A stretch of DNA of 34,779 nucleotides, from NCBI GenBank assembly GCA_964404805.1, contig CAYOLJ010000002.1:1-34779 (forward strand), in the 5' to 3' direction. Each line of letters opens with the position of its first letter. Positions within the stretch are counted from its first letter, which is position 1. A program made the translations under genes and the position numbers. Origin of the DNA: an uncultured Candidatus Peribacteria bacterium (GTDB lineage Bacteria; Patescibacteriota; Gracilibacteria; Peribacterales; Peribacteraceae). Shown piece after piece: positions 1-31,776 of this stretch. The notes beneath the pieces are model-generated. The model made no database searches. It was not told the origin of the DNA and was given only the letters and a program-made list of their open reading frames with translations.

Positions 1-765
1 ATCGCTCTGCTGCGACCGGATTTCCAAATCCAAAACGCGTATTACGGCTTCGTACTGCGAATGGGAGAAATGAGTTTTCTCATCCCTACGTTCTTGCTCA
101 ACTCCATCTTGCCCATCGTGAGCGAGCGCAGAGAGAATGGTAAGGATACTCGTGACCTTTTAGGAAAAACATTCCTCGTCCTTCTTCTTTTGGGAACAAC
201 CGCCGGACTTTTTGCTGCGCTGTGGCCACGACCGCTCATTGCCCTGCTCACGACACGGGAATATCTCTCGACAGTGGATCATCCCGGTGCCGACACTGCC
301 CTCCGTCTCGCCAGTGTGCCAATGTTCCTCTACGGATTCATTCTCTTTTCGTTTTATATGGCATTGGTGCACGGGGAATGGCGGCGCCTGCTCGCCACTC
401 TCACTATTGGGGCCATTATCTCGGTGAGCAGTAACATGCTTCTTATCCCGCAACTCGGATTTGTCGGCGCGGCGACAACGGCCATCATTGTGCAATCACT
501 CTTAGTGAGCCTTCTCCTCCCTGCCACGCTCAAATACTCACGACCGTACTTTCCTCCATGGGCTTTTTTGCGTTGGTTTATCTTCACGCTCCTTCTTGCG
601 ATGATCCTCTGGCTCACGCGACCATTCCTTGCAAATGATTACCTGACATTCCTCGGGCTTGCCCTCGCCAGCCTTGTACTGGGAATTCTGCTCTGGGCTA
701 CGGGATTCATAAAGCTTCTAAGGGCTCTACATCGCCATTCGCTCGGCCTTGGGGAAACAGGCTGA
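1..765 (+). CDS. MOP-superfamily flippase, C-terminal part (MurJ/MviN-like); 5' end lies outside the window
   Basis: Frame 1 is open from nt 1, with no stop before the ATG at 61. The product is a series of hydrophobic helices (FLVLLLLGTTAGLFAAL, GFVGAATTAIIVQSLLVSLLL, FIFTLLLAMILWL, LALASLVLGILLWATGF) like the last TM segments of MurJ/Wzx flippases. Stop TGA at 763-765. Confidence 0.55.
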   Translation: MALLRPDFQIQNAYYGFVLRMGEMSFLIPTFLLNSILPIVSERRENGKDTRDLLGKTFLVLLLLGTTAGLFAALWPRPLIALLTTREYLSTVDHPGADTALRLASVPMFLYGFILFSFYMALVHGEWRRLLATLTIGAIISVSSNMLLIPQLGFVGAATTAIIVQSLLVSLLLPATLKYSRPYFPPWAFLRWFIFTLLLAMILWLTRPFLANDYLTFLGLALASLVLGILLWATGFIKLLRALHRHSLGLGETG

Positions 766-801: not shown

Positions 802-2175
802 ATGACTCGCCGAACTCTCTTCGCACTTGCTCTTGTCTGGGGCTTCATTGTCCCAGCATCTGTGTTTGCAGAAATGCCAGGGACCGTAACCGGCCTGCAG
901 GCTTACGGGCAGGATGATGGCTCCGTCATCGTGGAGTGGGTCCAAGTCGAAGGAGATATCGCCGAATATCGTGTGTATTTCAGCCAGAAATCCATTCTGG
1001 AAAATGATGGGTACTACGATGCTGTCGAAACGACCGAAGGTCCTGTCTCCATGCATATTCTCCAAGATGTTCCGTCAACATTCTCAACTGTGTACGTGAG
1101 CATAATGGCAGTGAATGCGTCAGGAGAAGAAAGCCCCTTCTTCACTGAAGAAGTGCGCGTAGACCGTGCAGTCAACCCGACATCCACTCCTTCATCTTCC
1201 GACCCCGATACTCCCGTCATGCCTCCAGCAGACACCCAGGCACCCATGTCTGCTTCTTCGGCACAGACAATGCCTCGCACAGATGCTCTGCATCTGCTTT
1301 CTGTACAAGCGCTCTCTGCGACCCGTGTCGTTCTTGCGTTTTCGGCAACGCCAATAATTGATCCTGCCTCTGCCCCCACTGCGTTTTCGATTATTGATTC
1401 GCAAGGATCCTCGCTACCTATCGAACAGCTCACTATTGATGGGAGAACTGCCATGGTGCAGACCATGCGTCAGGCCGCAGGAATGGTCTACCAAATGCGT
1501 CTGAGTGAGCCTCTTGCTGGTGAGGGAGGACTCATCCTTGACCCCATTGATCGCACGGCTTTCTTCACTGGGCATGGTACAGGGATCTCCCCTGAAGAAG
1601 CCGCTGCCCGCGCAGAAAGCCTGCCGCAGAATACTCCTTCTCAGCAGCCGACATCTCCTCTGCCAGGTATGTTGCAGCCTCAGACAGGAAGCCTACCCGA
1701 TGTGGTGAATTTCCGTCTCAATGCATCTCCGCAAAAAAATCAGCGCTTTATGGTGACCGGCCAGTGGGAGCTTGATCCCGCTACGCCCGATGGCGCCTTC
1801 ATTGTTGTGCGCCAGAGTCGTGATGGTGGCCGCACATTTAATACTCCAGAGTTTCTCTCTGGAGACCTAAACGGCGTGCAGATTCCCGATGTCACACCAC
1901 AGAACTTTGGTCTTGTGGTGTACGTAGCGAACGCCGAAGGAGAATCCTCGCCAGGTGTTTTCAAGGCTCTCTTCACTTGGAACACTCCTCAGCCGCCTGC
2001 ACCAGCCGCGGCAGTGGTATCAAGTGCATCCTCTCCCTCATCTTCTCCCTCATCTGTCACAGCACCTCCTACACCCAAAGTGAATAGCTTGTCGCAAACA
2101 GGGGCAGGCGCCATGGTTGGTATTGCCGCCCTCGGAGCACTTATGGGCTGGAGAAAGAGTAGGAAAAAGAAGTAG
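802..2175 (+). CDS. secreted cell-surface protein with FN3/Ig-like domains and a C-terminal LPXTG-like (LSQTG) sorting signal
   Basis: Signal peptide MTRRTLFALALVWGFIVPASVFA. FN3-like segments (PGTVTGLQAYGQDDGSVIVEWVQVEGDIAEYRVYF...MAVNASGEESP and VVNFRLNASPQ...YVANAEGESSPG). Pro/Ser/Thr linkers. C-terminus is LSQTG plus a hydrophobic stretch plus RKSRKKK. Confidence 0.75.
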   Translation: MTRRTLFALALVWGFIVPASVFAEMPGTVTGLQAYGQDDGSVIVEWVQVEGDIAEYRVYFSQKSILENDGYYDAVETTEGPVSMHILQDVPSTFSTVYVSIMAVNASGEESPFFTEEVRVDRAVNPTSTPSSSDPDTPVMPPADTQAPMSASSAQTMPRTDALHLLSVQALSATRVVLAFSATPIIDPASAPTAFSIIDSQGSSLPIEQLTIDGRTAMVQTMRQAAGMVYQMRLSEPLAGEGGLILDPIDRTAFFTGHGTGISPEEAAARAESLPQNTPSQQPTSPLPGMLQPQTGSLPDVVNFRLNASPQKNQRFMVTGQWELDPATPDGAFIVVRQSRDGGRTFNTPEFLSGDLNGVQIPDVTPQNFGLVVYVANAEGESSPGVFKALFTWNTPQPPAPAAAVVSSASSPSSSPSSVTAPPTPKVNSLSQTGAGAMVGIAALGALMGWRKSRKKK

Positions 2176-9980: not shown

Positions 9981-11711
9981 ATGTTGTTTCATCCCACATT
10001 TAGCACAGAGAAAGAACGGAGATTGATATTCGATGGTGGTGCGCCTGCCGCAGCTCCCGGCGAGGCCCCTGTTGCACCGCCTGCCGCGGAATTAACTCCC
10101 GAACAAAAAAAGATTCAGGGGCAGATTGAGAAGATCGCGGCGAATCCTGATGTGGCAAAAGAGTTGGCGGCTTTTCAAGTGCAGAAAGCGAATGAAGACA
10201 ATGCCCAATTGCAGGAGCGATACAAGGCAGCGCTCGTGAATGCGGCGAATGCGTATCATCAAGAACTTATAGCCTTGGCCACCCCAGATTCCCTCCAAGT
10301 GGTTAACGAAGCGTTTGCAGAAACTGGTGTTACATTTGAACTTGGGGTTGATGGAAAGCTTGCGATCGGGGCTGAGGTGCCAGTAGATCGAGAAGAGAAA
10401 GGCCGTGAGCTTACTGATGTAGAAAAGACGATGATTCAAGAAGCCTTTGCATCTAATCCCCAATTAGCTGCCGCAGCCGAGGTCCTGATGGGACGCATGA
10501 CTGAAGACAGCCCAGATCTTGCCGTGGCCCAAGGGTTCTTTGAAAACTTTAATAAAAAGAGCCCAAAAGAGAAACAAGAGATCCTCACCAAAGATCCGGC
10601 ATTTCAAGAGTTTCTGCGTGAGATTCCTGCAGATCAGCAGGAGCTTGTGAAACAGATGCGCCAAACGATGATTGAAACAACACGAGAAGAAGCGACAGAA
10701 CTCTCTGACGAAGAGCGCGCAGATATTATTGATGGCGCAGAGAAAGAACTGGAGAAATTCGATGCCACCAAAGCCTCAGAGATCGATAAAAATATTATGC
10801 TCGCACGCATGCAGATGCGCGGCATCGATACCAGTAATCCCGACGAGATCTTCGCCAAGCCTCCTATACTCAAGGTGACCGAAGGCTCACCTATGGAACG
10901 TGGATTCAGTAAGATTATGGGTCTGATCGGTTACGTTCTACTGAGTATTCAGAAGATGAAGGGGAAGTTGAATCCAGAGACGAAGACGGGCGCAGATGCG
11001 CCGGCGGGTAAGCCTGGTACGGGCGCGGAGGCTCCGGCCCCGGGACAGGATGCGTTGAAACAGAAGCTGAAAGAGCAGATGAAGACGAAGAAGGGTGATG
11101 CACTTCTCTCAGAGAAAGGAGCCCAAAAAACTACCTTAGAGGGAGAGATTCAGGCTCTGAAAACAGAGGTGGATGACCTTAAGGATAAAGAGGATGAGGA
11201 GAATAAAGGTGCCTTTGAATACAAGAACGGAGAATTACAGCAGAAACAGCAGGAAGTAGCCCAACTAACACAGGAAGTTACAGTGCTACAGGAGATGAAA
11301 ATCACAACAGAGAACCAGAAAAATATCCTCAATGGAGGCAAGGATGCACTTACTTCGTATCTTGGGAGGTCAGATGCGCGCACTAGAGTTCCAGGCGGCG
11401 TGAAGATATGCGACGGTCTAAAGAAAACAGTTTTTGTGGTAAATGATAGTTTTGAGCTCTCTCTCACAAATGAAACAGGCGGCCCTGTTGATCGCACTAT
11501 TCTTGGTGATCTCTCGGGAGCTATTACCTTCAGAATGGGCACTGGCATAGACTACTTTGCCATCAATGAGCAGGCTGTTCTTAAGCAGCCAACTGAACTA
11601 CAGACGGTTTTCCGCCAGTTGCTTGATGGATTTAAGGCGGATGTGAAAGCAGATGAGCCACCGCGCCCAGCTGCTCCTGCGGTGCCAGCTGTTCCACCGG
11701 CTGCTCCCTAA
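9981..11711 (+). CDS. hypothetical 576-aa protein with Pro/Ala-rich termini and a central/C-terminal coiled coil
   Basis: Long ORF. N-terminus GGAPAAAPGEAPVAPPAAE and C-terminus PPRPAAPAVPAVPPAAP. Heptad-like segment LEGEIQALKTEVDDLKDKEDEENKGAFEYKNGELQQKQQEVAQLTQEVTVLQEMK. One hydrophobic patch, FSKIMGLIGYVLLSI. No recognisable domain. Confidence 0.7.
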   Translation: MLFHPTFSTEKERRLIFDGGAPAAAPGEAPVAPPAAELTPEQKKIQGQIEKIAANPDVAKELAAFQVQKANEDNAQLQERYKAALVNAANAYHQELIALATPDSLQVVNEAFAETGVTFELGVDGKLAIGAEVPVDREEKGRELTDVEKTMIQEAFASNPQLAAAAEVLMGRMTEDSPDLAVAQGFFENFNKKSPKEKQEILTKDPAFQEFLREIPADQQELVKQMRQTMIETTREEATELSDEERADIIDGAEKELEKFDATKASEIDKNIMLARMQMRGIDTSNPDEIFAKPPILKVTEGSPMERGFSKIMGLIGYVLLSIQKMKGKLNPETKTGADAPAGKPGTGAEAPAPGQDALKQKLKEQMKTKKGDALLSEKGAQKTTLEGEIQALKTEVDDLKDKEDEENKGAFEYKNGELQQKQQEVAQLTQEVTVLQEMKITTENQKNILNGGKDALTSYLGRSDARTRVPGGVKICDGLKKTVFVVNDSFELSLTNETGGPVDRTILGDLSGAITFRMGTGIDYFAINEQAVLKQPTELQTVFRQLLDGFKADVKADEPPRPAAPAVPAVPPAAP

Positions 11712-11759: not shown

Positions 11760-12299
11760 CTACCTTTTTCTTCTAGTGAATTTGAATACTAGAAATTCAT
11801 TATTAATTAGCCAAAGTAAACCAGACAAGAGCTGCAAGAACACACCAACATGAAATGTCTGTTTTTCTATTCTATATGCTGGGCTATGTAACAAAGCATT
11901 ATTGATAACATCTTGTAAATCTGTGATCTGAACTTGCTTGGTCTCTTCAGTATTCAAAACAACATCAAAAATACAGTGATTATGTGTTTTGCCATCCATT
12001 GTAAGAGATGCACCATTGCAATCTAGTTTACTAATTTCACTAATTCCAAGTTCCTTTAAACTAGGATCCTGATTTTCCAATAGTGCTTCATAAATCCAAA
12101 ACATTAAATCTCCTTTTGCAACTTTTGTCCCCGTTTGTAATGATTGTGCAGATGAAATAAAGGTATCATAATTCGGAGCAATCCTTCTTCTATAAATAGG
12201 ATCTTTGTCAGCATTAGAAGCCCAAAAACCAATATTCATAAGAATAAATCCAATGATTCCAAATGTTACGGTGGCCAGTGCTAACCCGTGTTTTTTCAT
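11760..12299 (-). CDS. hypothetical two-TM membrane protein encoded by a low-GC (about 33%) gene
   Basis: ATG start. N-terminal TM LALATVTFGIIGFILMNIGFW and C-terminal TM VGVFLQLLSGLLWLI followed by KFTRRKR. My hand count gives 180 G+C in 540 nt, while neighbours are far more GC-rich. It starts 20 nt downstream of the tRNA-Leu 3' end. Confidence 0.65.
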   Translation of the reverse strand: MKKHGLALATVTFGIIGFILMNIGFWASNADKDPIYRRRIAPNYDTFISSAQSLQTGTKVAKGDLMFWIYEALLENQDPSLKELGISEISKLDCNGASLTMDGKTHNHCIFDVVLNTEETKQVQITDLQDVINNALLHSPAYRIEKQTFHVGVFLQLLSGLLWLINNEFLVFKFTRRKR

Positions 12300-12436: not shown

Positions 12437-13426
12437 TTATGAGGGGATTTCTTCCTCTCCCCGTGCGATACGATCTGCGCGGCGGGCAGCCTCCTCTTCA
12501 CGGTGTATGGCCTCCTTACCGGCCTGATCGCCCTTCTGCTTCGCTTCAGTCTCCACCCCTTGTAGGGTTTCGCGTTCGTGTACCGTGGCCTGCTCGCGCT
12601 TGCGGTGGGCGAGTGCCTCGAGTTCTAGTTTCTTCTTTGTGGTTTCAGTATCAACTGCTGTCTTCTTGGTGCGCTTGTCTTGCTCAATCTTTTCGCGCTC
12701 ACGACGTTCATCCGCATCAATCTTACGTTGCTCTGTGTCGCGAACACCCATGGGCAGGCTTGCGGCGGCAAGGCGTCGTCTACGAATATCACCTTCCATT
12801 CGGGCCGTTGCCTCCCGCTCCTGCGCATCGAGCTTGGCCTTCTTCTGCTTTGCCTCTTCATCAGCTGTTTCCTTCAGGCGCTGCTCTTCTTGATCAGCAT
12901 CTGAGCGCTTCTTACGCCCCTCTGTCTCTGTTTTACTCCGGTCTCGTTTGGCCCAAAGCTCTGCCTGCTGACGTGCAAGCAGGGCGCCCCACTCTGCCTG
13001 CTCGCGGGTGTTATTCATGAGTTTTCTGGCCTCATTTTTTCTACACTCTTTCAAAACCATGCGCGCGTTCTGTTCCTGCATTTGTTTCATGTACTCACGG
13101 CGCTTCTTCATACGCTCTTCGTGTTCTGCAGCCTGATCTTCCCAAAATTTCTTCTCCTCTGCCTTCTTTTTTTTCATCTCTATCACCGCCTTTTTTCGTT
13201 CGACCTCCGCTCCGCTCCATTCTTTGAGTTCCTGCTTTTTGCGTTCTTCTGCCAGGATATCTGCTTCGGCAAATGCATGTTGGCGTTCGCCGCGTTCCAC
13301 TCCCTCCCGCTCGCGTCCTGCGCGGTGCTCCTTATCCTTTTCCAGCTGCTTACGCTTGAGCTCCTGAGCACGCTCAAGTTCTCTCTGCATGTCAGCCTTC
13401 TTGGGGTCCACAGGATCGTTCGACAT
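12437..13426 (-). CDS. hyper-charged E/K/R-rich helical protein, unknown function
   Basis: 329-aa ORF. My count gives 166 D/E/K/R residues (about 50%). No TM segment or signal peptide. ATG start sits 6 nt after a TGCTATAAT motif. Confidence 0.7.
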   Translation of the reverse strand: MSNDPVDPKKADMQRELERAQELKRKQLEKDKEHRAGREREGVERGERQHAFAEADILAEERKKQELKEWSGAEVERKKAVIEMKKKKAEEKKFWEDQAAEHEERMKKRREYMKQMQEQNARMVLKECRKNEARKLMNNTREQAEWGALLARQQAELWAKRDRSKTETEGRKKRSDADQEEQRLKETADEEAKQKKAKLDAQEREATARMEGDIRRRRLAAASLPMGVRDTEQRKIDADERREREKIEQDKRTKKTAVDTETTKKKLELEALAHRKREQATVHERETLQGVETEAKQKGDQAGKEAIHREEEAARRADRIARGEEEIPS

Positions 13427-20223: not shown

Positions 20224-20284
20224 GCGAGGAGAGCTAGTATGCAGTATTCACTGCGGAGTATACAGTCCTCCTCAGGTTTTCCTC

Positions 20285-21844
20285 TTAGAGTCCTGCTGCA
20301 TTTTTGCACTGTTTTGCGACCTCTGATTCAAGAGGGGCTCCTCTGGCGTACGGAAAACACTCATCCTTGAAAATAATTTTCAATATGCGATCTAATTGCT
20401 TATTGCATGGGCGGAAAATGCAGGATGTACGCAAGAAGGATGCGTAGTCACGCACAAATTTTCGTAGGCCAACATTCGAGCTCTGTACCGAAGACGCAAG
20501 TTTGCGCACTTCTGCGCGAAGCGGCGTGAGCGTGTTGAGTACACGCAGTGGAGCATCGATAGTCTTTGCGATCTGTGCGCTCTCTTTCTTCGCTTGTTGC
20601 AGGCTGAATCCCTGCAGATACAACTGTACATCGTAGCGAGCACCGAGCAGCCAGAAGAGCATGTTATCTTCCATCTTTCGCGCAGCCTCTTTCTCGGGGC
20701 CGTCTGGCAATTCATCGGAGTCGCGGATGTACGTAGGAGGCAGGCGTTGCTGGCCCCATCCATCCCAGAGCGCTGAGAGCTTGGGCATGAGAGACGTCTC
20801 ATTCGATGAGAATGCAAACGGTCCACGACGTTCCCAGAAGGCGACACCTGTGGGGAGCTGCTCATCCTCCGCAAGGCAGCCACTTTTCACTTCGTGGTTA
20901 CGCTTGTTGCTTGCTCCCATACCAAAATTCGAGAGATCCATCGTTCCTCCTCCCAAACGTTGTTCCAGTTGTACGATGGTATCCTTTGCGGTGCCAATAT
21001 CTTCAATGGCTGTATCACGGTCCTGAATGAGTTTTCGCAGCCCTTCGATTTCTTTTCGAATGCCTTCTGGTCCATCGCGGCTTTCGAGAACAGAAAGGTC
21101 GCAACCATATCCCGCTCCGGTTGGCGGAAGGTAATCTGTACTGAATGGACAGAGCTCTCCGTCGTCTTCCCCTTCTCCGCCCGATGCAGTGCAGCCGGCA
21201 TTCACACAGGCATACTGCCTCTTAAATGCGAGCCCCTGCGTGTTGATGCAATCAGAATACTCCGTGCCTTCCCCTATCTGCCGGCACTCAATATTTCTCG
21301 TGTCATCCTCTTCCTCTTTGCCGGGGCAGCACCAGTAGGGTGGGGCATCAAATCCGTACAATGATCCCTCTTCTTCATCGACGTACGTGGGGTCTCTTGC
21401 TCCTAGAAGAAGAGCCTTATAGCGGTTATTCAGGTAACGTTGCATCGAAATGAGGCGCGCAGCTTCACTCACACGCCCCGCTTCAATGGCGTCATTCTTT
21501 CGTATTCTTGCTCGCTCCATCCATCCTTCAAGAATGAGAGTGTCGAGTCTCAGACAGGGTGTGTTTTCTCGTAGGTCGCGCTCTTGCTCCACAATGCGCA
21601 GATCTGTATCAACCAACAACAGAATCATTCCGGTGATCTGATCGAGCCAGAAGAGCTTGAGCAGTTTATCTACGGTTGCGTCTCCGCCTCCGGCATTATC
21701 GAGCCCGGCACTCACGCGACGCACCACACGCTCTATGTACGGAGAAACGGGGGCGATATCTGCATACTGATCACCTGCCGCCATTGCCGGAGAAGCAATG
21801 GAGCAGATCAATATGCCGGTGAGCAACAGAGGAACAGTTCTCAT
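20285..21844 (-). CDS. exported Cys-rich protein E of the five-gene cluster, unknown function
   Basis: Sec signal MRTVPLLLTGILICSIASPAMA. Cys cluster WCCPG...ECRQ...DCINT...ACVNAGC...LCPF...YGCD. The ATG overlaps the upstream stop (ATGA at 21841-21844). Confidence 0.8.
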   Translation of the reverse strand: MRTVPLLLTGILICSIASPAMAAGDQYADIAPVSPYIERVVRRVSAGLDNAGGGDATVDKLLKLFWLDQITGMILLLVDTDLRIVEQERDLRENTPCLRLDTLILEGWMERARIRKNDAIEAGRVSEAARLISMQRYLNNRYKALLLGARDPTYVDEEEGSLYGFDAPPYWCCPGKEEEDDTRNIECRQIGEGTEYSDCINTQGLAFKRQYACVNAGCTASGGEGEDDGELCPFSTDYLPPTGAGYGCDLSVLESRDGPEGIRKEIEGLRKLIQDRDTAIEDIGTAKDTIVQLEQRLGGGTMDLSNFGMGASNKRNHEVKSGCLAEDEQLPTGVAFWERRGPFAFSSNETSLMPKLSALWDGWGQQRLPPTYIRDSDELPDGPEKEAARKMEDNMLFWLLGARYDVQLYLQGFSLQQAKKESAQIAKTIDAPLRVLNTLTPLRAEVRKLASSVQSSNVGLRKFVRDYASFLRTSCIFRPCNKQLDRILKIIFKDECFPYARGAPLESEVAKQCKNAAGL

Positions 21845-24357
21845 TCAGGAACGTACGGAGAGTCAGGCACGTATGGGGGTGTGTCACAGAAATCGGGAGT
21901 TTCTGCCGCATTCCGCGGACATGTTTGCTGCGGGAACTGGGTTTTTGCCATTGCACCCATCAACTGGTTACCTGCCCGCAGAGTGTCAGACAGCGCGCGA
22001 CCGGCCCAAGAGAGATAGCGCGTAAGAAGTGATGTGCCAATACGCGTCGCGATACTCTGGGTCATGCGTTGCAGTGATTCGGTGGGCTCTAGATTTTCCT
22101 CGATTTGTCCTGCAAAGCTGAATGAAGTTGTCACATAGCTATCGGTGGGAATATTCAGTCTGCGCTCGTAGTTGAACTGACAGAGGATAGGTGGGGTGGC
22201 GGCAGGAAGACCGTTAATCTGGCACAGCGCGCGATCGAGAGATTCGATCAGCAAACGTGGGTTGTAGGCAGGCATGAGCGGTGGAGAAATGGCAGGTAGT
22301 GCGATGAGTCCCGCGGCTTGTGTATTTTCTACCGCACAGGAATCCCACGGGAACGCCTCGTCTTCGACGACCAACCCCATGCGGCCGGGGATGACGCGCG
22401 ATTGTTCGATGGATTGTTCTACGCATTGGCCGATGTAGCAGAGGTTGTTCCCGATGGTGTTCTCATACTTTGTCGGGCAACTGGGCGTACAGGCACCGTT
22501 CAGGCCCTCGATCATCGAGACGATGCGGCTATCGAGGCGCGCCAGTGCCTCTGTCCCCCTAGCCTGGATCATTGTAGAAGTACCTGCCCGATCTTCTGTT
22601 TTTCCTATCACCTCTTCGCATGAAGGAAGGTTTCCACCAGATTCGCGGTCTGCCTTTCGTAAGGCATCCAAGTATTTTTCTAAAATATCTTCGGTTTCAA
22701 GACTTGAACACGGCTTCTCGCCGTATTTTCTGCAGCTGATGTTACTCAGGCCACCTATGCATTCCTCGAGTGAGAAGCCAATGGCATCCAAGATTCCAAT
22801 CTCTGCATCCACACGGCAGGAAACCCTAAAGGCTTCTGCTTCATGAGCACAGCAGCGCTCAGCCGTGTAAGATACTTTGGTTTTCGGTTTGAGGTTACAA
22901 TATTGCTGCGCATGGACGAGTTCATGGAGCAGGCTGGATCGAAGCATGATACGAGGAGCGCTGTTCTGGACACATATATGGATAACACCGTTCTCATCCT
23001 TCTCCTCTGTTGTTGCTGAGTTTCCGTTGGGACAATTGTCTTTGCATTGAATATCCACCGTGCATAGACTGCAACCAAGTTTGCCTTCTGGGCTCAAGAG
23101 TTCCTTACTCGGAATGCGCCACCATCCCGTGCGACAGATATCAGGGCCGGATTCGGTGAGGGCGATCGGCTGCTTCGCCTGCGTCGGTTTACACTCCGTG
23201 AGTACGATCGCACGAGGATCTTTATCCTCAATTTCTGCATTACAGCGGTCGTGCCGCATCAGGCGGCACATGTAACCGTCTCGGGCGAATGCTAAATGGC
23301 AAATCCCCTCGTCCTCATCCGGTTCTTCGGGGGGGTCTTCATAACGGCCGCCCGGGAGGATTCCGAATCGATCGACAACAGTGCAGTAGGCCTTAGAGAA
23401 CTTTCCGGAATCACAAGGGTCACCACCCAGTATTTCAATGGAGGGAGAAGAGAGGGTTAGATCCCATCCCAATCCCACATCACGCTTAATTGTTCCGTCG
23501 AAATTCTCTGCCATCATCCAGACAACGGCATGTTCCGGCGTATCGAGCTTGCGCAGAGGGAAGATGACGATCTCTCCATGTTGAAGTGGAGGGGCGTATT
23601 CCAATGCAGATGCCGGAAGTGCGTCTCGCAGAGCGCGCAATTTGTCTTCGACTTTGCAGTACCGTTCGCGGATTGCCGGATACAACTCCGAGGCGTCCCT
23701 GACGTTGTAACAGTAATCAGAGAACGGGGTGATTCCGTAACGGTACCGCCACACGGCAGTCGAGCCGGCACTCTCGAGTTCGGCCCCCAGGTCGTTGAAC
23801 ATCCCATCCGTCACACTATCGGGCCGGGGAACCGCACGTACGAGCGGAAAAACCTCAGGTGTGAACAGGACATCATCTTGGCTGCGCCATAAATTCCGGA
23901 TGGTCAGTGTGCGCTCCGCGACGGTGAAGATCTCTCCCATTCGTCCGCTCACACCCGTTTCGTATCCTGTAGCAATGTGCAGAAGATCTGTTGAAAGCGT
24001 GAGTGTTTCGAGGATGTCACGTCCCCAGTCGCGGAACATCTGATACGCCTGAGGGCAGCCATCGAAAGTGTTGTTGTATTTTTGACAAAAATCGTTGAGT
24101 CGTGATTCAAACGCCGCTTTCACAATTGATTGAATCTCTGCAGAGGTTTCATCTTTCAAGAAAAGGTTTTCCTGAGACACCATTTGAACGACATAGCTAA
24201 TAATGGAATCGTTAACTCCTTCCAAAGTCATTTCCTGCTCTGTGAGTGCATGCATTTTTTCGTAGAGTTGCAGGCCACCAAGCCCCTGTTGTGCGTGGGC
24301 ATGCGTTGCGATGAGCAGCGAGCCGACAATGCCGAAAATGGCGGAAGAATATTTCAC
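21841..24357 (-). CDS. exported Cys-rich protein D of the cluster with a zincin-like HExxH motif
   Basis: The GTG start overlaps the upstream stop (GTGA at 24354-24357) and yields signal peptide MKYSSAIFGIVGSLLIATHAHA. 838 aa with many Cys. SSLLHELVHAQQ is encoded at 22912-22926 (HELVH). Confidence 0.8.
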   Translation of the reverse strand: MKYSSAIFGIVGSLLIATHAHAQQGLGGLQLYEKMHALTEQEMTLEGVNDSIISYVVQMVSQENLFLKDETSAEIQSIVKAAFESRLNDFCQKYNNTFDGCPQAYQMFRDWGRDILETLTLSTDLLHIATGYETGVSGRMGEIFTVAERTLTIRNLWRSQDDVLFTPEVFPLVRAVPRPDSVTDGMFNDLGAELESAGSTAVWRYRYGITPFSDYCYNVRDASELYPAIRERYCKVEDKLRALRDALPASALEYAPPLQHGEIVIFPLRKLDTPEHAVVWMMAENFDGTIKRDVGLGWDLTLSSPSIEILGGDPCDSGKFSKAYCTVVDRFGILPGGRYEDPPEEPDEDEGICHLAFARDGYMCRLMRHDRCNAEIEDKDPRAIVLTECKPTQAKQPIALTESGPDICRTGWWRIPSKELLSPEGKLGCSLCTVDIQCKDNCPNGNSATTEEKDENGVIHICVQNSAPRIMLRSSLLHELVHAQQYCNLKPKTKVSYTAERCCAHEAEAFRVSCRVDAEIGILDAIGFSLEECIGGLSNISCRKYGEKPCSSLETEDILEKYLDALRKADRESGGNLPSCEEVIGKTEDRAGTSTMIQARGTEALARLDSRIVSMIEGLNGACTPSCPTKYENTIGNNLCYIGQCVEQSIEQSRVIPGRMGLVVEDEAFPWDSCAVENTQAAGLIALPAISPPLMPAYNPRLLIESLDRALCQINGLPAATPPILCQFNYERRLNIPTDSYVTTSFSFAGQIEENLEPTESLQRMTQSIATRIGTSLLTRYLSWAGRALSDTLRAGNQLMGAMAKTQFPQQTCPRNAAETPDFCDTPPYVPDSPYVPE

Positions 24358-25151
24358 TGTGGCAAGTCACGGAGAGGATCCTTGGCGTTCCAGATGCGCG
24401 GCAGACAGGCGCTGGCCTCTGCTGCCAGAGCGAGAGCATTGCGGATATCGAGAGATGCTCGCTCAATACACTGAAGCTCTGAATGGAGCGGGAGTAGACG
24501 ACTAAGGCCGGCGAGAACAGAGAGTGTCCGGTTGAGGGAGGGGCGGGCCGTTGCTAATTCCGTGGCAATTGTCTGGTCTTCTTCCGAAACCTCGGCGGTG
24601 AGGAGAGAGAGATAAATATCGGATTCGTCCCCTTCCTCTTGCATTGCCATCTCAAGCTGTAGGAGTGCATCCGGGTGCAGGAAGTAAAGCCTCTCTTCTA
24701 AAGCGCATTCGTAGGCCCGCAAGAATTCAAGGAGCACGGAACTGGCTTCCCATTGGCTGACAGAAGATTCCTTCCAGCTGGGGAGGCTTTTCGCGAGTGC
24801 ACTCAACTTCGTTCCGCCAGGCAGCACATCGTTCCCTGTTGCGGCATTGCATTTCGGGGGACGCGAAAAGGATTGCATGTGTTCGTCGACAATTTCACCG
24901 ACAATGCGATGGTATTCCGTTGACCATTGCGAGAAACTACCGTCTCTGAAAGGCAGTTGTGCGTATGCGTAATTCTCTGCAAAGCGGGAGCAGGGGGTGA
25001 GGATGGAGTTTTCTTCTTCTTGCTTGATGAGCAGATCGACACTGGTGGCAGCAAATTTTTTGGGGTCTTTCACTACAACAGCGATAACACTGAGAGCCAC
25101 CAACAAAAGGACGATCATCGAGCCAATGGTGCGCTTACGGAGAGAGAACAT
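24354..25151 (-). CDS. membrane-anchored protein C of the cluster, unknown function
   Basis: N-terminal anchor MFSLRKRTIGSMIVLLLVALSVIAVVV, then a mostly helical ectodomain. The ATG is 5 nt after the stop of gene B. Confidence 0.75.
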   Translation of the reverse strand: MFSLRKRTIGSMIVLLLVALSVIAVVVKDPKKFAATSVDLLIKQEEENSILTPCSRFAENYAYAQLPFRDGSFSQWSTEYHRIVGEIVDEHMQSFSRPPKCNAATGNDVLPGGTKLSALAKSLPSWKESSVSQWEASSVLLEFLRAYECALEERLYFLHPDALLQLEMAMQEEGDESDIYLSLLTAEVSEEDQTIATELATARPSLNRTLSVLAGLSRLLPLHSELQCIERASLDIRNALALAAEASACLPRIWNAKDPLRDLPQ

Positions 25152-25156
25152 GATTC

Positions 25157-25969
25157 TTAATTGGCGGGGGGACTTTCATCACAGCTGCCGATGAAACAGG
25201 GAATGCGGTAGAGGGATCCAACGAGCTGCGCGGCTTTGCGAAGCGAATTCGCAAGAGGCCAGCGGAACTCCTGTAGGAAGGCATCGATTTGTCCTGAGAG
25301 CTGCAAAAGAGAGCGATACGCCGCATCGTACTCAGTGGCTTGCTTAAGTAGATCTTTCTCACGCGAGACCAGATCATCTCTTACCAATCGACAGTGGGTG
25401 AGCAGTTCACCCTCTTCCACTTTGCTCCCTTCGGCAGCCGCGAGGTGGCAGCTGGGGATTGATTGTCGTTTGTCCTCGATGCACCCCGGTACCACTATGG
25501 TTAGTTCCTGCGGTTCCATACTTTCCAACTTAAGAGAATTTTCCACAACCTTGCAGACAATGGTTGAACGGCATTTGAGTGAGCGGTAGGCCTGTGTGAG
25601 GTAGGGCACCAAGTCAGACGTCATCACTTTGCGCGTTTCGAAGATGCCTTTGCGCGGCTTTAGCTCATCCTTGCCATCCATTTCGTCATCGCTGCGTTCC
25701 TCATCCTCTTTCCTCGGCGATACTGAGCGCCACACATCCTCCTTCTCCTTGATCCATGGGATTCCCTCATTGTCGAAGTACACTTCGTTGAGCGCGGCAT
25801 CTTGCGCTTTCTTGTGTCCGAAGAGCACGCTGCGGTACAGGCGTTGCTCCTGCGAGAGCTGTTGCACCATGAGTGTCTGGCATGTGTCAGTAGCCTGCGC
25901 ATGACCTTGCAGTGGCATGATGATGAATGCGAGAACAGTGAGCCAGAGAAGAGAAGTGTGGTGCTTCAT
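25157..25969 (-). CDS. exported protein B of the cluster, unknown function
   Basis: Sec signal MKHHTSLLWLTVLAFIIMPLQGHA. 270 aa. The ATG overlaps the stop of gene A (ATGA at 25966-25969). Confidence 0.75.
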   Translation of the reverse strand: MKHHTSLLWLTVLAFIIMPLQGHAQATDTCQTLMVQQLSQEQRLYRSVLFGHKKAQDAALNEVYFDNEGIPWIKEKEDVWRSVSPRKEDEERSDDEMDGKDELKPRKGIFETRKVMTSDLVPYLTQAYRSLKCRSTIVCKVVENSLKLESMEPQELTIVVPGCIEDKRQSIPSCHLAAAEGSKVEEGELLTHCRLVRDDLVSREKDLLKQATEYDAAYRSLLQLSGQIDAFLQEFRWPLANSLRKAAQLVGSLYRIPCFIGSCDESPPAN

Positions 25970-28900
25970 CGGGAGGAGGAACTACTCTGATTGAATCGGG
26001 TTGTGGGCAGAATGATGGGGGTGGGGACATTGAATGAAGGCAGCATGTCGTCCGGTGTCACGATATAGGGGAAGGAGCTGCTGCTTCCTATGGGGATCGT
26101 TGTCTTCCAGAGCCTGTTACGCAAATTCGCCAGGTCTTGTTGCCCAATTCCTTCCTTTACGCCTTCTACACGCCACCCTTCGCGTGCGAACGTTTTTTCG
26201 ACGTTGTAGATATGGCAGGCCCAGTCTTCGCGCGGGCAGGGAGGCACAGCTGTTGGGGGGTTGAGGTCCATGCTGCGAAGTACGCCTGCAACCTTGGAAT
26301 CAAGAATCACATCTGTTCGGAATGGTCCATACGACGAGAAATCTTCTCTGAGCTGCACGGCAGGGCGCGCTCCAATACGCGTGAAGCGCTCGAGCAGGTC
26401 CATCTCCACATGCACGCACGGCATTTCATCGAGACGCTCACAAGACCACATACCGTAGAAGTTCCTTTCAGGGAAATCCGTAATGCTCTCCCAGAATTTC
26501 TTGTACGTCTCATCCATACTGGTGATCATCGATAGCATGCGTCTCATTACTTCTTCAACTTCGGGCGGTACATCGGCAATGGTCGTCTCTACTTTTGATG
26601 GAGAAGAGAGGTGCTGCACTTCGCTCGGGAAGAGGTTTCCTAAAACTTCTTCATAGATGGAAGGAACAGGTGGGAGATCGGGTAATTCGATTATTTTATC
26701 CAGACGCTCAGAGACCAGATCAAGCCCCTCACGTGAGGCTGGAGGATCAAAGAGCGACTGCTGGAGCCGGATTTGGATGGGCGTGATGACCGGAAGGATC
26801 ACGGTTCCCGTTGAAACGCGTAGAGCCGTGAAGTCGTAAACGAGATCAGGAAGTGTTTCGATCAACAAGCGAGGAAGACTGTAGGGTGTGAGGTCGTTGG
26901 CAGGCTGATCATCAATGTTGAGCATCAAATTGCGTGGCTCTGGCGGACCGGGCATCCAATCATCCAGGAATGAGTAGATGGGTGTGGTGAAGCGATCATT
27001 ACGACACCACGGCATGTTCGTGCGATCGTGAAAGGCACGGTACTTCTGTTGGGTTTCTTGCCAGAGCGGTTTGAGATCCAGGCCCTGATGATGCACGGTG
27101 GCATATCGTTCCCATGTCTGCAGATTGGTCATTAGCCATTCACCAATGGCACGCATCATCGTTCCTTGGTACGTGAGCAGGCGACCGATGTACTGCGCCA
27201 GTTCGCCACGCAGCGCCCGCACCTGATCAATGCGCTCTGCGTAGTCTTCGAGTTTCTGTACAGCCTGTTCTGCTTTCGATTTTCCGTCTTCGTGCTCTTC
27301 GCCCCAGCGTTTCCATCCTTGTGCAAGTGCGCGAAGTTCCACAGGCGATGCTAATGGAACAACCAATGGCACTGGTTCTTCTCGTACGTGAAGGAGGAGG
27401 CCATTTTCGAGGTAAGCGCTGACCTCTGAAAGCAGATCTTCGGGAGCGGCGTGGATCTGAACATCGATAATCTGCTGATTAATCTTTTTCCCATTACTGG
27501 AGCTACTGCCCTGTGGGGTCAAGAATGGATCAGAGAGGTCTAATCCAATTGATGCGGGGGTTGGAAGTACCAGACGCAGTAGGGGGGAGCTGAAGAGCTT
27601 GTGTGCTTGTGTCTCCTGCTCCTGCCACCACTCGATGATCGTGCGGCGTCCTGGGTCCTCAGTGTGAACGGTATCATCGGTGGAGCGAATAAGGCTGCCG
27701 CTCGAATAGGGGCGCTGTATATCTAGCTGCGCCGTCGGCATGATGTCGGTGTTGTCGAGCTGCATCAGTGGAAAGAGATTGTCTTTCGGTGATTCCTTAA
27801 ACTTTTCACTATTTAAGAGTGAGAAGGTATCACTGAAATCATTCACCCACAGGTTTTTGCGCGTATCGCGTACCGCAGTGTGTTCATAGGCAGGATCTGG
27901 GAGGTTGGAGTTTTGGCCGTACTCTCCTTTGCCAAGCTGAGTTTCTTTCATGCGGTTGAATCGCTTTCCTTCGTCCTCCAGATTGATGATACATCGATAG
28001 TCAGGCGCATTGGTGCGACGAGCCTTGGGATCGAACTCTTCATAACGGCAGTAGCAGTCAACTGGCACATCGAAGCGCGATGTATCATCGCGGGGCACTA
28101 CGGCTACGGGATCCCGGGTATATGTCACCATATGGCGTCGATAGATCGATACGTACTCCCGCCCATTGGGGGCATTCTTTCCATCGCGGCATCCCGTGAA
28201 TTCAAGATCTTGAGGACGCTCGCCGTTGAAGTCGAACCCCGGATTATTGCGGTCTTCGAGGCCGTCTCCGTGGCAGGCAATGCAATTGCCCTCTGGGTCT
28301 CTGTCGCGGTCGACCATCAGCGCGTTTGAGCAGCAGTACAGTAGCTCGTCGACATCGCACCAGACTGCTATTCCCTGATTGCCACCGTGCAAATTCCACA
28401 AACGTGCATCCACACTCACCCATCCCGCATCACCCGGATGGCACCAGTCACCATTATCAATGTTCCGGCATGGGCTTGTGTCTCCGAGAAAATCGAACAC
28501 TTGGAATGGACCTTTGTCATCCCACTGAGTCCATTCTGCAGTGCACTCTTGATGACGCCGTACCCAAGCATTCAGATCGTGGCACATTTGCTGACACTCG
28601 TCGGGGTTTCTGCATGGCGGATCATCTGGGCACTCGCGGATGTAGGGATAACTGTTTTCGCACTCATGGACGTTGCAGACGGTTGACCAACCGCTTGTGC
28701 GACTGGAGTCGGGGAAAACGAAGCCATCTTCCAGCGCCCCTGTACGTTCTTCACGTTGGGCGAGGCCTCCCGCCGCTACTTCGGACATCAGTTTGCCGTC
28801 CGCGCCGAGAAATGAGCCCCTACGGCCGGGAGCACCACTGACATAGGGGATTTTGTTATCGACGTGGTCGTTGAAATCCCAGCCACCACACTGGGCGCTT

Positions 28901-29151
28901 TCGAGGTCCCCGCGAACCTTACTCACGTTCCCCTGTACAGTTTCGAAGTCGGTTGGCTCATCAATCTGCAGGGCGCGCACAGGAAGCACTCCAAGAGAGG
29001 CTGCTATGAGCAGGCCTACCACGACCGGGACGGCAGATTTTAAGTGTGCATCCATCGTGGGAGCTATCGTACCGTTTTTTCCTGCTTTAGCGCCACAGAA
29101 AGACATTGCGCGCATGGTCACATCGGTCCTGTAACCAGGGCATATTGCCAT
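25966..29151 (-). CDS. large exported Cys-rich protein A of the cluster, unknown function
   Basis: 1061-aa ORF. The internal ATG at 29055 gives a clean signal/anchor, MDAHLKSAVPVVVGLLIAASLGVLPVRA, and is the likelier start. The N-terminal 300 aa hold 19 Cys (CENSYPYIRECPDDPPCRNPDECQQMC, LYCCSN, NCIACHGDG). Confidence 0.8.
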   Translation of the reverse strand: MAICPGYRTDVTMRAMSFCGAKAGKNGTIAPTMDAHLKSAVPVVVGLLIAASLGVLPVRALQIDEPTDFETVQGNVSKVRGDLESAQCGGWDFNDHVDNKIPYVSGAPGRRGSFLGADGKLMSEVAAGGLAQREERTGALEDGFVFPDSSRTSGWSTVCNVHECENSYPYIRECPDDPPCRNPDECQQMCHDLNAWVRRHQECTAEWTQWDDKGPFQVFDFLGDTSPCRNIDNGDWCHPGDAGWVSVDARLWNLHGGNQGIAVWCDVDELLYCCSNALMVDRDRDPEGNCIACHGDGLEDRNNPGFDFNGERPQDLEFTGCRDGKNAPNGREYVSIYRRHMVTYTRDPVAVVPRDDTSRFDVPVDCYCRYEEFDPKARRTNAPDYRCIINLEDEGKRFNRMKETQLGKGEYGQNSNLPDPAYEHTAVRDTRKNLWVNDFSDTFSLLNSEKFKESPKDNLFPLMQLDNTDIMPTAQLDIQRPYSSGSLIRSTDDTVHTEDPGRRTIIEWWQEQETQAHKLFSSPLLRLVLPTPASIGLDLSDPFLTPQGSSSSNGKKINQQIIDVQIHAAPEDLLSEVSAYLENGLLLHVREEPVPLVVPLASPVELRALAQGWKRWGEEHEDGKSKAEQAVQKLEDYAERIDQVRALRGELAQYIGRLLTYQGTMMRAIGEWLMTNLQTWERYATVHHQGLDLKPLWQETQQKYRAFHDRTNMPWCRNDRFTTPIYSFLDDWMPGPPEPRNLMLNIDDQPANDLTPYSLPRLLIETLPDLVYDFTALRVSTGTVILPVITPIQIRLQQSLFDPPASREGLDLVSERLDKIIELPDLPPVPSIYEEVLGNLFPSEVQHLSSPSKVETTIADVPPEVEEVMRRMLSMITSMDETYKKFWESITDFPERNFYGMWSCERLDEMPCVHVEMDLLERFTRIGARPAVQLREDFSSYGPFRTDVILDSKVAGVLRSMDLNPPTAVPPCPREDWACHIYNVEKTFAREGWRVEGVKEGIGQQDLANLRNRLWKTTIPIGSSSSFPYIVTPDDMLPSFNVPTPIILPTTRFNQSSSSSR

Positions 29152-29250
29152 GAGCGTTCAAGGCCATTCATTTGCATGGGATGGTTGCCGGTGTACCGTG
29201 CCTTTCCACGGCTCTGTGTGGCCTCCTCTATTTTCATTCCTCTCCGTGAC

Positions 29251-30108
29251 ATGTTTTCTCTCAATCGTGTACATATGATCGGCTATCAAACCCAACCAGC
29301 CGAAGTGCGTCAAACCCCCAGTGGAACGAGTGTCGTAGATTTGAATCTTGTCGTTCCATACTCATTTCAGTCTGAGCAGGGAGAAACCTTGCAGGGACGT
29401 GCATTCCATACCGTTACCCTTTGGGGCTCCATGGCCGATTTTGCTGGTCAGTACGTGCGTCCGGGCTCGCAGATTTTCATTGGCGGGCGACTGCAGACGG
29501 ATTCCTGGGAAGATCAAAGCTCCGGCGAGAAGCGCAGCAAAACGAAGATCGTTGCACTCGATATGATCCTCCTTGATCCTAAAGATGGGCAGACTCCCAC
29601 TCCCGAAGCAGCCAAACTCACACTCAGTGCGGTAAATCGTGCAGATGTCGTTGGCAATGTGACGCGCGATCCCGAGATCCGTACCACGACTGGTGGCAAG
29701 CAGGTGCTTACACTTGGTGTTGCGACCAATGATCGCTGGAAAGAGCGTTCGACTGGCGAGGCCAAAGAACGTGCAGAGTTCCACAATGTTGTGATTTGGG
29801 GTGCGCTGGCAGAAGAGGTTGGCAAGGTTGTACACAAAGGCAGTCGCGTCTTCGTTTCGGGCCGCGTACAGACTCGCGGTTGGGAGACGAAGCAAGGTCA
29901 GAAGCGCACCACTACCGAGATCATTGCCGATCAGTGTGCTCTGCTCGGTGTGCGGAACGCTTCGGCCCTCGAGGCCGTTGAGTCCAGTGCTCAACGTCGT
30001 GCATCTCCTCAATCACAGGAATCTCCAACGGCTGCGGCTCCGGCATCAGCCGATATCCCCGAGATTCAGTATGCCTCAGAGGTGAAGGTGGAAGATCTTC
30101 CTTTCTAG
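29251..30108 (+). CDS. ssb: single-stranded DNA-binding protein with two tandem OB folds
   Basis: Two SSB-type OB domains (NRVHMIGY...FHTVTLWG...GGRLQTDSWEDQ and NRADVVGNVTRDPEIR...FHNVVIWGALAE...GRVQTRGWETKQG), a P/A/S linker and an acidic tip VEDLPF. The ATG at 29251 is chosen because the GTG-extended ORF (29044) overlaps gene A. Confidence 0.9.
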   Translation: MFSLNRVHMIGYQTQPAEVRQTPSGTSVVDLNLVVPYSFQSEQGETLQGRAFHTVTLWGSMADFAGQYVRPGSQIFIGGRLQTDSWEDQSSGEKRSKTKIVALDMILLDPKDGQTPTPEAAKLTLSAVNRADVVGNVTRDPEIRTTTGGKQVLTLGVATNDRWKERSTGEAKERAEFHNVVIWGALAEEVGKVVHKGSRVFVSGRVQTRGWETKQGQKRTTTEIIADQCALLGVRNASALEAVESSAQRRASPQSQESPTAAAPASADIPEIQYASEVKVEDLPF

Positions 30109-31278: not shown

Positions 31279-31776
31279 CTATTTTTTCGAGAGGAACTGC
31301 GCGGCGCGTTCCATGGTATCTGCGATGCGCTGACCTCGCGTGATTCTCTGTAATCGGGCAAGAACAACGGCGAGCACGGCCAGTCCTATAAGTCCTCCGA
31401 CGATAAGCATGAGTTCGCGCTCGCCCAACGTGTATCCCATGGCCGAGAGAACAACTTGGACTAATGCGAAGACGAATATGCCGAAGAGCGTTCCTACACC
31501 CAGCGTCACGATGACGAGGTGCGTGCGGTTTTCTTGGCTGTCTTGCGGGGCGCTTGCGAGCTGTGTGAGGAGCTCACTCGAGAGAATTACAGGTTCCTTA
31601 TCCCACTGCTTGAAGAGCTGAAAGACTTTGCGTTGGAGCACGAGACCGACGAATGTGCGAAACGGTACGGAGGTCTTGCCGGTAATTACAGCTTTATTAC
31701 TCTCGGTCTTCAATTCAACTTCGAGGTCGACGGTTTCGGGCATGACAAGGAGGGGAAAGCAGAGAGATATTAGCAT
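31279..31776 (-). CDS. hypothetical membrane protein (two C-terminal TM helices)
   Basis: 165-aa ORF. TM segments LVIVTLGVGTLFGIFVFALVQVVL and LMLIVGGLIGLAVLAVVLA. Alternative ATG at 31743. No family recognised. Confidence 0.55.
   Translation of the reverse strand: MLISLCFPLLVMPETVDLEVELKTESNKAVITGKTSVPFRTFVGLVLQRKVFQLFKQWDKEPVILSSELLTQLASAPQDSQENRTHLVIVTLGVGTLFGIFVFALVQVVLSAMGYTLGERELMLIVGGLIGLAVLAVVLARLQRITRGQRIADTMERAAQFLSKK

Follow-up and report, generated by a model that had tools for sequence, protein, structure and literature searches.

What is the function of five adjacent genes, all predicted to encode exported, cysteine-containing proteins, that lie between the core replication genes ssb and dnaE of an uncultured Candidatus Peribacteria bacterium? 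The genes, here called A to E, are located on the 34,779-nucleotide stretch formed by positions 1 to 34,779 (forward strand) of contig CAYOLJ010000002.1 of GenBank assembly GCA_964404805.1; this whole stretch is referred to as the window. An earlier interpretation, made from the letters and open reading frames (ORFs) without database searches and called the sequence-only reading below, had suggested that the products build a secreted or cell-surface assembly. The analysis described here shows that A–E are a vertically inherited operon across the sampled Peribacteria. Tentatively, it favors the view that the products are subunits of one disulfide-stabilized complex outside the cytoplasmic membrane, in which D would be linked to C and which would form an envelope or surface structure. 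The five genes are the following:

25966-29151, minus strand: gene A, 1061 amino acids (aa) as open frame, 1029 aa from the ATG at 29055
25157-25969, minus strand: gene B, 270 aa
24354-25151, minus strand: gene C, 265 aa
21841-24357, minus strand: gene D, 838 aa, GTG start
20285-21844, minus strand: gene E, 519 aa

In the ORF listing of the window, these five minus-strand frames were found at exactly the coordinates first noted, and the junctions were confirmed: A and B overlap by 4 nucleotides (nt) in ATGA, B and C are separated by a gap of 5 nt, C and D overlap by 4 nt in GTGA, and D and E overlap by 4 nt in ATGA. For gene A, a start at the internal ATG at 29055 had been suspected. A 96%-identical orthologue, P0029, and the orthologue of Candidatus Peribacter riflensis (1029–1030 aa) begin at this same ATG, which is therefore the real start.

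Homologues of D and A were found exclusively in metagenome-assembled genomes (MAGs) of Peregrinibacteria/Peribacteria; those of Candidatus Peribacter riflensis show 63–68% identity. When one genome per GTDB species was scanned with motifs of D, including NTIGNNLCY, 67 loci were obtained. These belong to Peribacteria/Peregrinibacteria, except for a few with generic labels (“bacterium,” “Patescibacteria group”) and one Kiritimatiellales contig. The latter (L030, JAIPIN010000018.1), from a MAG labeled Kiritimatiellales, carries a full Peribacteria-type locus with ssb, A–E, a pilin gene, dnaE, and tsaC, and is probably mis-binned. A profile of D retrieved 287 clusters at 50% identity among 1.84 billion representatives.

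To define gene order, ORFs were called in 76 fetched loci and searched with profiles of A–E, dnaE, ssb, murB, tsaC, and gltX. The order A-B-C-D-E on one strand is present in 61 of them, 52 of which are flanked by a divergent ssb and, at the opposite end, by dnaE. The remaining 15 loci are interrupted by contig ends, yet they are consistent with this order, and none of the 76 departs from it. In all loci that are long enough, the five genes occur together. Moreover, public gene calls reveal overlapping stop and start codons or gaps of 0–2 nt at most junctions, even in loci that are only ~30% identical. Thus, the proposal that A–E form one coupled unit is sustained by overlapping or abutting junctions in distant loci and by an invariant gene order, and the five-gene synteny that was to be looked for in related genomes is indeed conserved. 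Purifying selection acts on all five genes, with ratios of nonsynonymous to synonymous divergence (dN/dS) of 0.05–0.17 when the window is compared with its nearest relatives, against 0.12 for dnaE and 0.09–0.30 for murB.

The conserved order extends well beyond the five genes. The whole neighborhood is syntenic throughout the group, with murA, lspA, ftsW, murG, a cyclophilin gene, gltX, murB, and ssb on one side of A–E and dnaE, tsaC, nrdR, and aspS on the other. The sequence-only reading had correctly placed the block between ssb, which is divergent and upstream of A, and dnaE, which starts 61 nt downstream of E; however, since the entire neighborhood is syntenic, this position says little about function. 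The region-wide synteny could also mean that A–E encode secreted or anchored proteins that are independent of one another and form no complex, the five genes being co-transcribed and preserved as a set by a frozen gene order only; this order is not specific to A–E. Nevertheless, the stop/start overlaps are kept at ~30% identity and all five genes are always co-present. Together with the odd cysteine parity maintained in both C and D, the conserved segments that are predicted to be disordered in monomer models, and the correlated evolutionary rates of the five proteins, all of which are discussed below, this makes the explanation an improbable one.

A large block of orphan genes between core genes might also suggest a horizontally acquired island of mobile, phage-derived, or defense origin. 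However, the GC content of the block (0.52–0.565) is the same as that of its flanks, its position is identical in every lineage, and its relationships are congruent with those of the housekeeping genes. No flanking repeats, tRNA gene, or integrase were found around the block, and no tandem repeats were detected; the window proteins had no match in PHROGs or PADLOC, and tblastn searches with A against phages and with D against plasmids gave no match either. An origin as phage, plasmid, or defense island is effectively refuted by this composition, the fixed position, and the negative library and tblastn searches, and has hardly any probability left.

No Pfam or NCBIfam match (E ≤ 1) was obtained for A, B, C, and E of the window, and Pfam scans of 31–34 orthologues of each of these proteins revealed no recurrent family. 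In sequence and profile searches of the PDB, no match had an E-value below ~0.1; entries for tubulin, syntaxin, and SNAP25 that appeared there were rejected as noise from helical segments. Hence, the statement that these four proteins belong to no recognizable family is in agreement with all these searches, including those of PHROGs and PADLOC, and no confident family match appeared in the profile, PDB, or Foldseek searches. The possibility of hidden paralogy among the five, raised by the sequence-only reading, was ruled out by an all-against-all comparison of the A–E profiles with hhalign, which detected similarity between signal peptides only, with probabilities of at most 6%; A–E are therefore five distinct subunits. 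One motif to which attention had been drawn did not survive the comparison: the CxxCH of A (CIACH, residues 290–294) is present in the window, but in orthologues its His is replaced by N, T, or Q and in one of them the first Cys is absent. As this motif is not conserved, it is not a heme site; no cytochrome Pfam match was found for A, and a heme c site in this protein is ruled out.

The sequences of A–E are public but annotated as hypothetical only. In Candidatus Peribacter riflensis, the orthologues are genes 963–967, each annotated “hypothetical protein” (Anantharaman et al., 2016; PMC4736985). A literature search retrieved no paper describing the operon and none that was relevant under the locus tags or the two Pfam families to which D shows weak similarity (see below). 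The operon is thus previously undescribed in the literature searched. The exact sequence of E of the window has no record among public assemblies.

Export signals were judged by inspection and hydropathy, with a positive n-region, a hydrophobic h-region, and either small residues at −3/−1 or an anchor as features. An N-terminal hydrophobic segment is found in 50 of 56 orthologues of A, 66 of 67 of B, all 43 of C, 68 of 69 of D, and 68 of 75 of E, and further transmembrane-like segments are almost absent from the A–E orthologues. The claim that every product is exported therefore appears to hold, as the signals occur in the window proteins and have been maintained among their orthologues.

The five proteins differ considerably in architecture. 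A has a cleavable-looking signal (…LPVRA/LQ), followed by a β-rich, Cys-rich N-terminal domain with large lineage-specific insertions and by a conserved C-terminal half with long helical hairpins. Orthologues of A are between 966 and 1837 aa long. Length is variable in D and E as well, and insertions are found mainly in these three proteins; a single orthologue of E has acquired a Cys-rich DUF4215 module in this way. B has an AQA-type signal peptide, eight conserved Cys, and a conserved C-terminal motif, RIPCFxxSCD. C is bitopic: it has an uncleaved N-terminal anchor (residues ~12–27, nt 25071–25118) and five conserved Cys, and it is the only membrane-anchored subunit of the five. D is a multidomain protein with an AHA-type signal peptide and 33 Cys, whereas E has an AMA-type signal peptide, 14 Cys in its mature part, and the conserved motifs CPFxSDYLPPTGxGYGCD and RSCxxRPCN…CFPY. 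A conserved C-x4-C pair is located in highly conserved segments of the C-terminal regions of B (258–263, PCFxxSC), D (640–645, LCYIGQC), and E (475–480, SCxxRPC) and may represent a shared small disulfide loop.

The Cys content of A–E is 1.9–3.9%, as compared with 0–1.3% in the other proteins of the window. However, the whole proteome of Peribacter is rich in Cys and includes many Cys-rich exported proteins (PMC4736985). The description “strikingly Cys-rich,” which the sequence-only reading gave for A, D, and E, thus needs tempering: the content is modest at 2–4%, and the A–E orthologues fall outside the Cys-rich set described in that study. Besides the amount of Cys, its parity was examined, based on the number of Cys residues downstream of the signal or anchor segment in every full-length orthologue:

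A: even in 48 of 52 orthologues, Cys count range 20–40
B: even in 58 of 62 orthologues, Cys count range 6–10 (8 in 49)
E: even in 60 of 63 orthologues, Cys count range 10–28
C: odd in 60 of 63 orthologues, Cys count range 4–11 (5 in 50)
D: odd in 57 of 59 loci, Cys count range 23–37

Each protein thus keeps its parity in 92–97% of the orthologues. In contrast, cytoplasmic controls from the same loci show random parity, with 29 even and 32 odd counts for dnaE, 23 and 22 for murB, and 13 and 11 for gltX. Since parity is fixed while the number varies, Cys residues are gained and lost in pairs, and this in turn suggests that essentially all Cys of A–E are disulfide-bonded, a pairing that we infer from parity. 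The idea of disulfide-bonded extracytoplasmic proteins is thus supported by the parity. C and D would each keep exactly one unpaired Cys. Both counts are odd in 53 of 58 genomes, and the count for D is odd both when its HExxH motif (see below) is intact (77 odd, 5 even) and when it is lost (44 odd, none even), indicating that the spare Cys is not tied to an intact catalytic site. Given that D is the immediate, translationally coupled neighbor of C, and that no subunit other than C is membrane-anchored, an intermolecular disulfide between C and D would be the most economical reading. Conservation alone did not reveal which Cys residues of C and D are unpaired; in the variable regions, the alignments by hmmalign and MAFFT disagree.

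The parity pattern, the anchor of C, and the export signals can be combined into a model. All five proteins would be exported by Sec, the pathway suggested by the conserved N-terminal signals, after which oxidative folding would pair every Cys, as parity implies. C would be retained in the membrane via its uncleaved anchor, and the intermolecular disulfide would tether the large D subunit to it. A, B, and E may then join non-covalently via highly conserved segments that fold poorly as monomers, and the variable β-rich, Cys-rich N-terminal domain of A would be the distal, exposed part. In the lineage of the window, where D has HExxH and a downstream Glu, D could process or chaperone partner subunits; its core role would be structural, catalytic activity being dispensable in many lineages. 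The complex would then be a constitutive envelope or surface structure, e.g., a spike or an attachment scaffold, of presumably episymbiotic cells, rather than a set of free secreted enzymes.

Structure predictions are relevant to the proposed assembly. In D, conservation is highest in a stretch (residues ~623–726, including NTIGNNLCY) for which the monomer model has a predicted local distance difference test (pLDDT) score of 30–50. In the AlphaFold model of A (mean pLDDT 69, predicted template modeling score 0.64), the N-terminal domain (residues ~60–370) is β-rich, Cys-rich, and confidently predicted (pLDDT 80–94); it is followed by a conserved low-confidence linker (376–453), an α/β region, and long helical hairpins (571–680). 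The conserved low-pLDDT segments D 623–726 and A 376–453 behave like segments that fold upon binding of a partner, which would hint at contacts between subunits. An assembly at the cell surface with a role in envelope structure, attachment, or host interaction, as hypothesized in the sequence-only reading, would fit the data; it gains indirect support from the Cys parity, the translational coupling, and the conserved segments that fold poorly as monomers.

Several considerations weigh against this interpretation and keep it tentative. The odd counts of C and D are equally explained by C–C and D–D homodimers or by functional free thiols. Given the region-wide synteny described above, conserved order alone is no proof of a functional unit. 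Group-wide, median identity is 29–39% for A–E vs. 70% for dnaE, 66% for ssb, and 53% for murB; this faster divergence fits surface proteins, but it fits any weakly constrained set of proteins equally well. The pairwise distances of A–E co-vary more strongly among themselves (r 0.69–0.89) than with those of housekeeping genes, which is suggestive of a complex; however, this test lacks phylogenetic control, and the residuals of dnaE and ssb correlate too, so that the covariation is weak evidence and deserves little weight. Furthermore, the model of D is poor (mean pLDDT 59), and no structural or sequence relative points to a role in the envelope or in adhesion.

D is the only subunit with an enzyme-like signature. 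Its features are located as follows:

22603-23082, minus strand: zincin-like domain of D, residues ~426–585
22912-22926, minus strand: HELVH (HExxH), D residues 478–482

The motif reads HELVHAQQxC…CCAxExEA, and the conserved Glu506 in CCAxExEA, a candidate third zinc ligand in a gluzincin arrangement, lies ~24 residues past HExxH. Residues 426–521 show a weak match to the Pfam family Peptidase_M76 (Atp23, PF09768; E 1.1e-3, 19.2 bits, cutoff 25.2), and D also matches DUF6782 (PF20573) with 13 bits at a cutoff of 27. Among 29 orthologues of D, 16 match DUF6782 (best E 4.2e-4) and 11 match M76 (best E 1.9e-4). None of these matches, in D of the window or in the 29 orthologues, was shown to reach the Pfam gathering score. 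In the AlphaFold model, the zincin-like domain is the best-predicted part of the protein (pLDDT ~80–87). A Foldseek search with the whole model gave no significant match, M61 aminopeptidase and ACE heading the list at E ≥ 0.6; a profile search with the zincin domain returned zero matches and missed known orthologues as well, and is therefore uninformative.

In a survey of 192 non-redundant orthologues of D, HExxH is intact in 137 and lost in 55 (29%), with many different replacements, whereas the downstream Glu is kept in 167 and the CC pair persists. The orthologues without HExxH (e.g., P0018, P0028, P0068, P0087, P0105, P0144, and P0157), in which the motif was replaced independently many times while the Cys framework was kept, look like pseudo-peptidase versions. 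Hence, the HExxH noticed in the sequence-only reading is present and lies in a weakly Atp23/M76-like or DUF6782-like domain, but its loss in so many orthologues implies that catalysis is not the conserved core function of D. In the lineage of the window, D is plausibly an active mini-gluzincin. As a separate observation, the synonymous divergence (dS) of D between the window and its closest relative, L010, is 0.44, i.e., 2–4 times that of its operon neighbors (0.11–0.22) and of dnaE (0.15); recombination or a separate history of D is possible.

Atp23 is a disulfide-rich protease-chaperone of an oxidizing compartment. This likeness, together with the HExxH and Glu signature, the weak M76 and DUF6782 matches, and the fact that the domain concerned is the best-folded part of D, raises the question of whether A–E constitute an extracytoplasmic machine for maturation or quality control. 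In such a machine, D would be an Atp23-like peptidase and chaperone held by C, and A, B, and E would be its cofactors or substrates; its task would be to help fold or process the many Cys-rich proteins that Peribacteria export, or components of the cell wall. The universal presence of the operon under purifying selection would befit a housekeeping function in the envelope, and genes for peptidoglycan synthesis (murA, ftsW, murG, murB) are found nearby. Furthermore, Cys-rich proteins destined for export are unusually common in the Peribacter proteome (PMC4736985). However, D has kept its Cys skeleton and its remaining parts even in the 55 of 192 orthologues that no longer have HExxH, the M76 similarity stays below the gathering score and Foldseek gives no significant zincin match, and no thioredoxin-like or Dsb-like domain was detected by Pfam or NCBIfam in any subunit. 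A maturation machine of this kind is considered unlikely.

The comparison with the two families can be summarized similarly. D resembles the mini-gluzincins of the Atp23/M76 and DUF6782 families in its HExxH with a Glu ~24 residues on, its Cys-rich frame, and its oxidizing extracytoplasmic setting. It is unlike them in that the matches are sub-threshold, no significant fold match exists, the motif is lost in 29% of the orthologues, and the domain is embedded in an 838-aa exported bacterial protein with unrelated flanking domains.

Foldseek searches with the model of A against the PDB and BFVD gave nothing below E 0.06. Class III fusion glycoproteins (rhabdovirus G and herpesvirus gB) recurred among the results, but were rejected at E 0.07–1.5, with probabilities of at most 0.05 and TM-scores of at most 0.08. 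In addition, A is without a hydrophobic segment at its C-terminus, where such proteins carry a transmembrane anchor. These recurrent but statistically insignificant entries are the sole hint for a fusion role of A and are not counted as evidence. A more daring version of the surface complex, in which a C–D disulfide would form the stalk of a host-contact machine and A its elongated, β-rich, Cys-rich head, with a central helical hairpin that would engage, or even remodel or fuse with, the host envelope, is very improbable. Should it prove correct, this machine would represent a novel type of apparatus for bacterial episymbiosis, specific to Peribacteria.

A further explanation is suggested by a gene found in 12 of 62 non-redundant loci. 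Between E and dnaE, and on the same strand, these loci contain a type IV pilin-like gene (…GFTLLE…INPTKQLNDARG), which in L005 has a Pfam N_methyl match. Examples are:

L005:14498-14932: pilin-like gene
L003:7158-7622: pilin-like gene
L007:13908-14432: pilin-like gene
L019:12116-12589: pilin-like gene

Peribacteria encode type IV pili (PMC4736985), and with a pilin gene adjacent in about one-fifth of the loci, A–E could be an accessory module of such pili, i.e., a Sec-exported tip, adhesin, or platform complex with a role like that of PilY1 and the minor pilins. Consistently, A resembles PilY1 in its size of ~1000 aa and in combining a variable N-terminal region with a C-terminal one that is conserved. 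In a dnaE tree, however, the pilin-bearing loci are scattered within one large sub-clade, and neither the deeper branches nor the clade of the window include any. The linkage is thus secondary and points to an insertion followed by losses. No pilus genes are present in the window. A–E lack a prepilin leader or N_methyl domain, their N-termini being of the Sec type throughout, and no match to PilY1/PilC, PilMNOPQ, or secretin was found in Pfam or NCBIfam (E ≤ 1). Accordingly, a function in pilus biology has a low probability. The likeness to PilY1 and the minor pilins is confined to the large size, Sec export, and division into variable and conserved halves of A and to the adjacent pilin gene of some genomes; the absence of a prepilin motif and of a PilY1/PilC match and the restriction of the pilin linkage to one sub-clade set A–E apart.

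Two other systems can be compared with the proposed disulfide-stabilized complex. In Bacteroidota, GldKLMN and PorKLMN are encoded by lineage-wide operons for bitopic and exported subunits of envelope machines, which were orphan families until they were studied. A–E are similar in being a co-transcribed, coupled set, universal in one lineage, of one N-terminally anchored and several Sec-exported proteins. They differ in that they show no sequence or profile similarity to these proteins, include no cytoplasmic or polytopic motor subunit, are disulfide-rich, and belong to a host presumably bounded by a single membrane.

The second comparison concerns the large Cys-rich extracellular proteins of Candidatus Peribacter riflensis, for which a role at the surface or in attachment was proposed (Anantharaman et al., 2016; PMC4736985). 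These proteins contain 2.4–11% Cys (at least 4.8% in 17 of 20), are mostly 1000–3900 aa long, show weak pappalysin- or FG-GAP-like matches, and vary between strains (PMC4736985). They share with A–E the group of organisms, export, the presence of Cys, and the proposed surface or attachment role. However, A–E have only 2–4% Cys, form no repeat family, and are conserved group-wide under purifying selection, and the orthologues 963–967 are absent from Table S4 of that study (PMC4736985). None of the known systems considered thus accommodates A–E, which are therefore at a large distance from known kinds.

The regions flanking the operon deserve some comments. Those next to the block are the following:

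29251-30108, plus strand: ssb, ORF open from 29044, start deduced from 285-aa orthologues
29056-29250, no strand: divergent intergenic region between A and ssb, 195 bp, presumed promoter location
20224-20284, minus strand: spacer between E and dnaE, 61 nt

A promoter scan of 29056–29250 detected no sigma-70-like consensus and nothing above chance, and no Shine-Dalgarno motif was found ahead of any of the five genes. No terminator-like hairpin was found in the 61-nt spacer between E and dnaE, and this gap is often <120 nt and sometimes negative in orthologous loci; A–E may be co-transcribed with dnaE and tsaC. In L006 (14209-17965) and L020, dnaE is present as two consecutive ORFs (896 + 342 aa and 470 + 843 aa); the gene could be genuinely split there, or the break could stem from a frameshift or from faulty assembly. 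The mechanically called ORF of ssb is 69 codons too long and overlaps, on the opposite strand, with the over-extended 5′ end of A. Its product shows two SSB/OB-fold matches within a single polypeptide of 285 aa; this tandem-OB architecture resembles that of the SSB of Deinococcus-Thermus.

Six further ORFs of the window (165–576 aa) are without Pfam match:

61-765, plus strand: ORF without Pfam match
802-2175, plus strand: ORF without Pfam match
9981-11711, plus strand: ORF without Pfam match
11760-12299, minus strand: ORF without Pfam match
12437-13426, minus strand: ORF without Pfam match
31279-31776, minus strand: ORF without Pfam match

One of these, of 457 aa, has a signal peptide but, unlike A–E, no Cys at all. 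The ORF at 31279–31776 is conserved and unannotated. At its place, L007 encodes a 155-aa protein with a Phage_holin_3_6 match, which lies beside a PIN/PhdYeFM toxin-antitoxin pair (L007:1745-3344) located between gltX and murB in an otherwise frozen neighborhood. In another Peribacteria locus (L006:1-871), a gene of the LpxC family adjoins gltX, which is unexpected if these bacteria have no outer membrane.

What do A–E mean for the biology of Peribacteria? It should be kept in mind that uncultivated genomes of the Candidate Phyla Radiation hold many conserved orphan genes, which tempers the novelty of yet another set. Nevertheless, the genomes of Peribacteria measure only ~1.25 Mb, yet ~9 kb is spent on A–E in every sampled member, and under purifying selection. 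The A–E families are good targets for structure determination, because the model of A is moderately confident, with an N-terminal pLDDT of 80–94, and has no neighbor in the PDB. In addition, the parity of Cys counts offers a cheap, sequence-only predictor of subunits with an unpaired Cys, and in this case it yields a sharp prediction, i.e., a disulfide between C and D. A–E are a concrete and testable candidate for a structure of the envelope or of host contact in a major lineage that is still uncultivated, and the result represents not yet a surprising mechanism but a well-defined lead into the cell biology of these bacteria.

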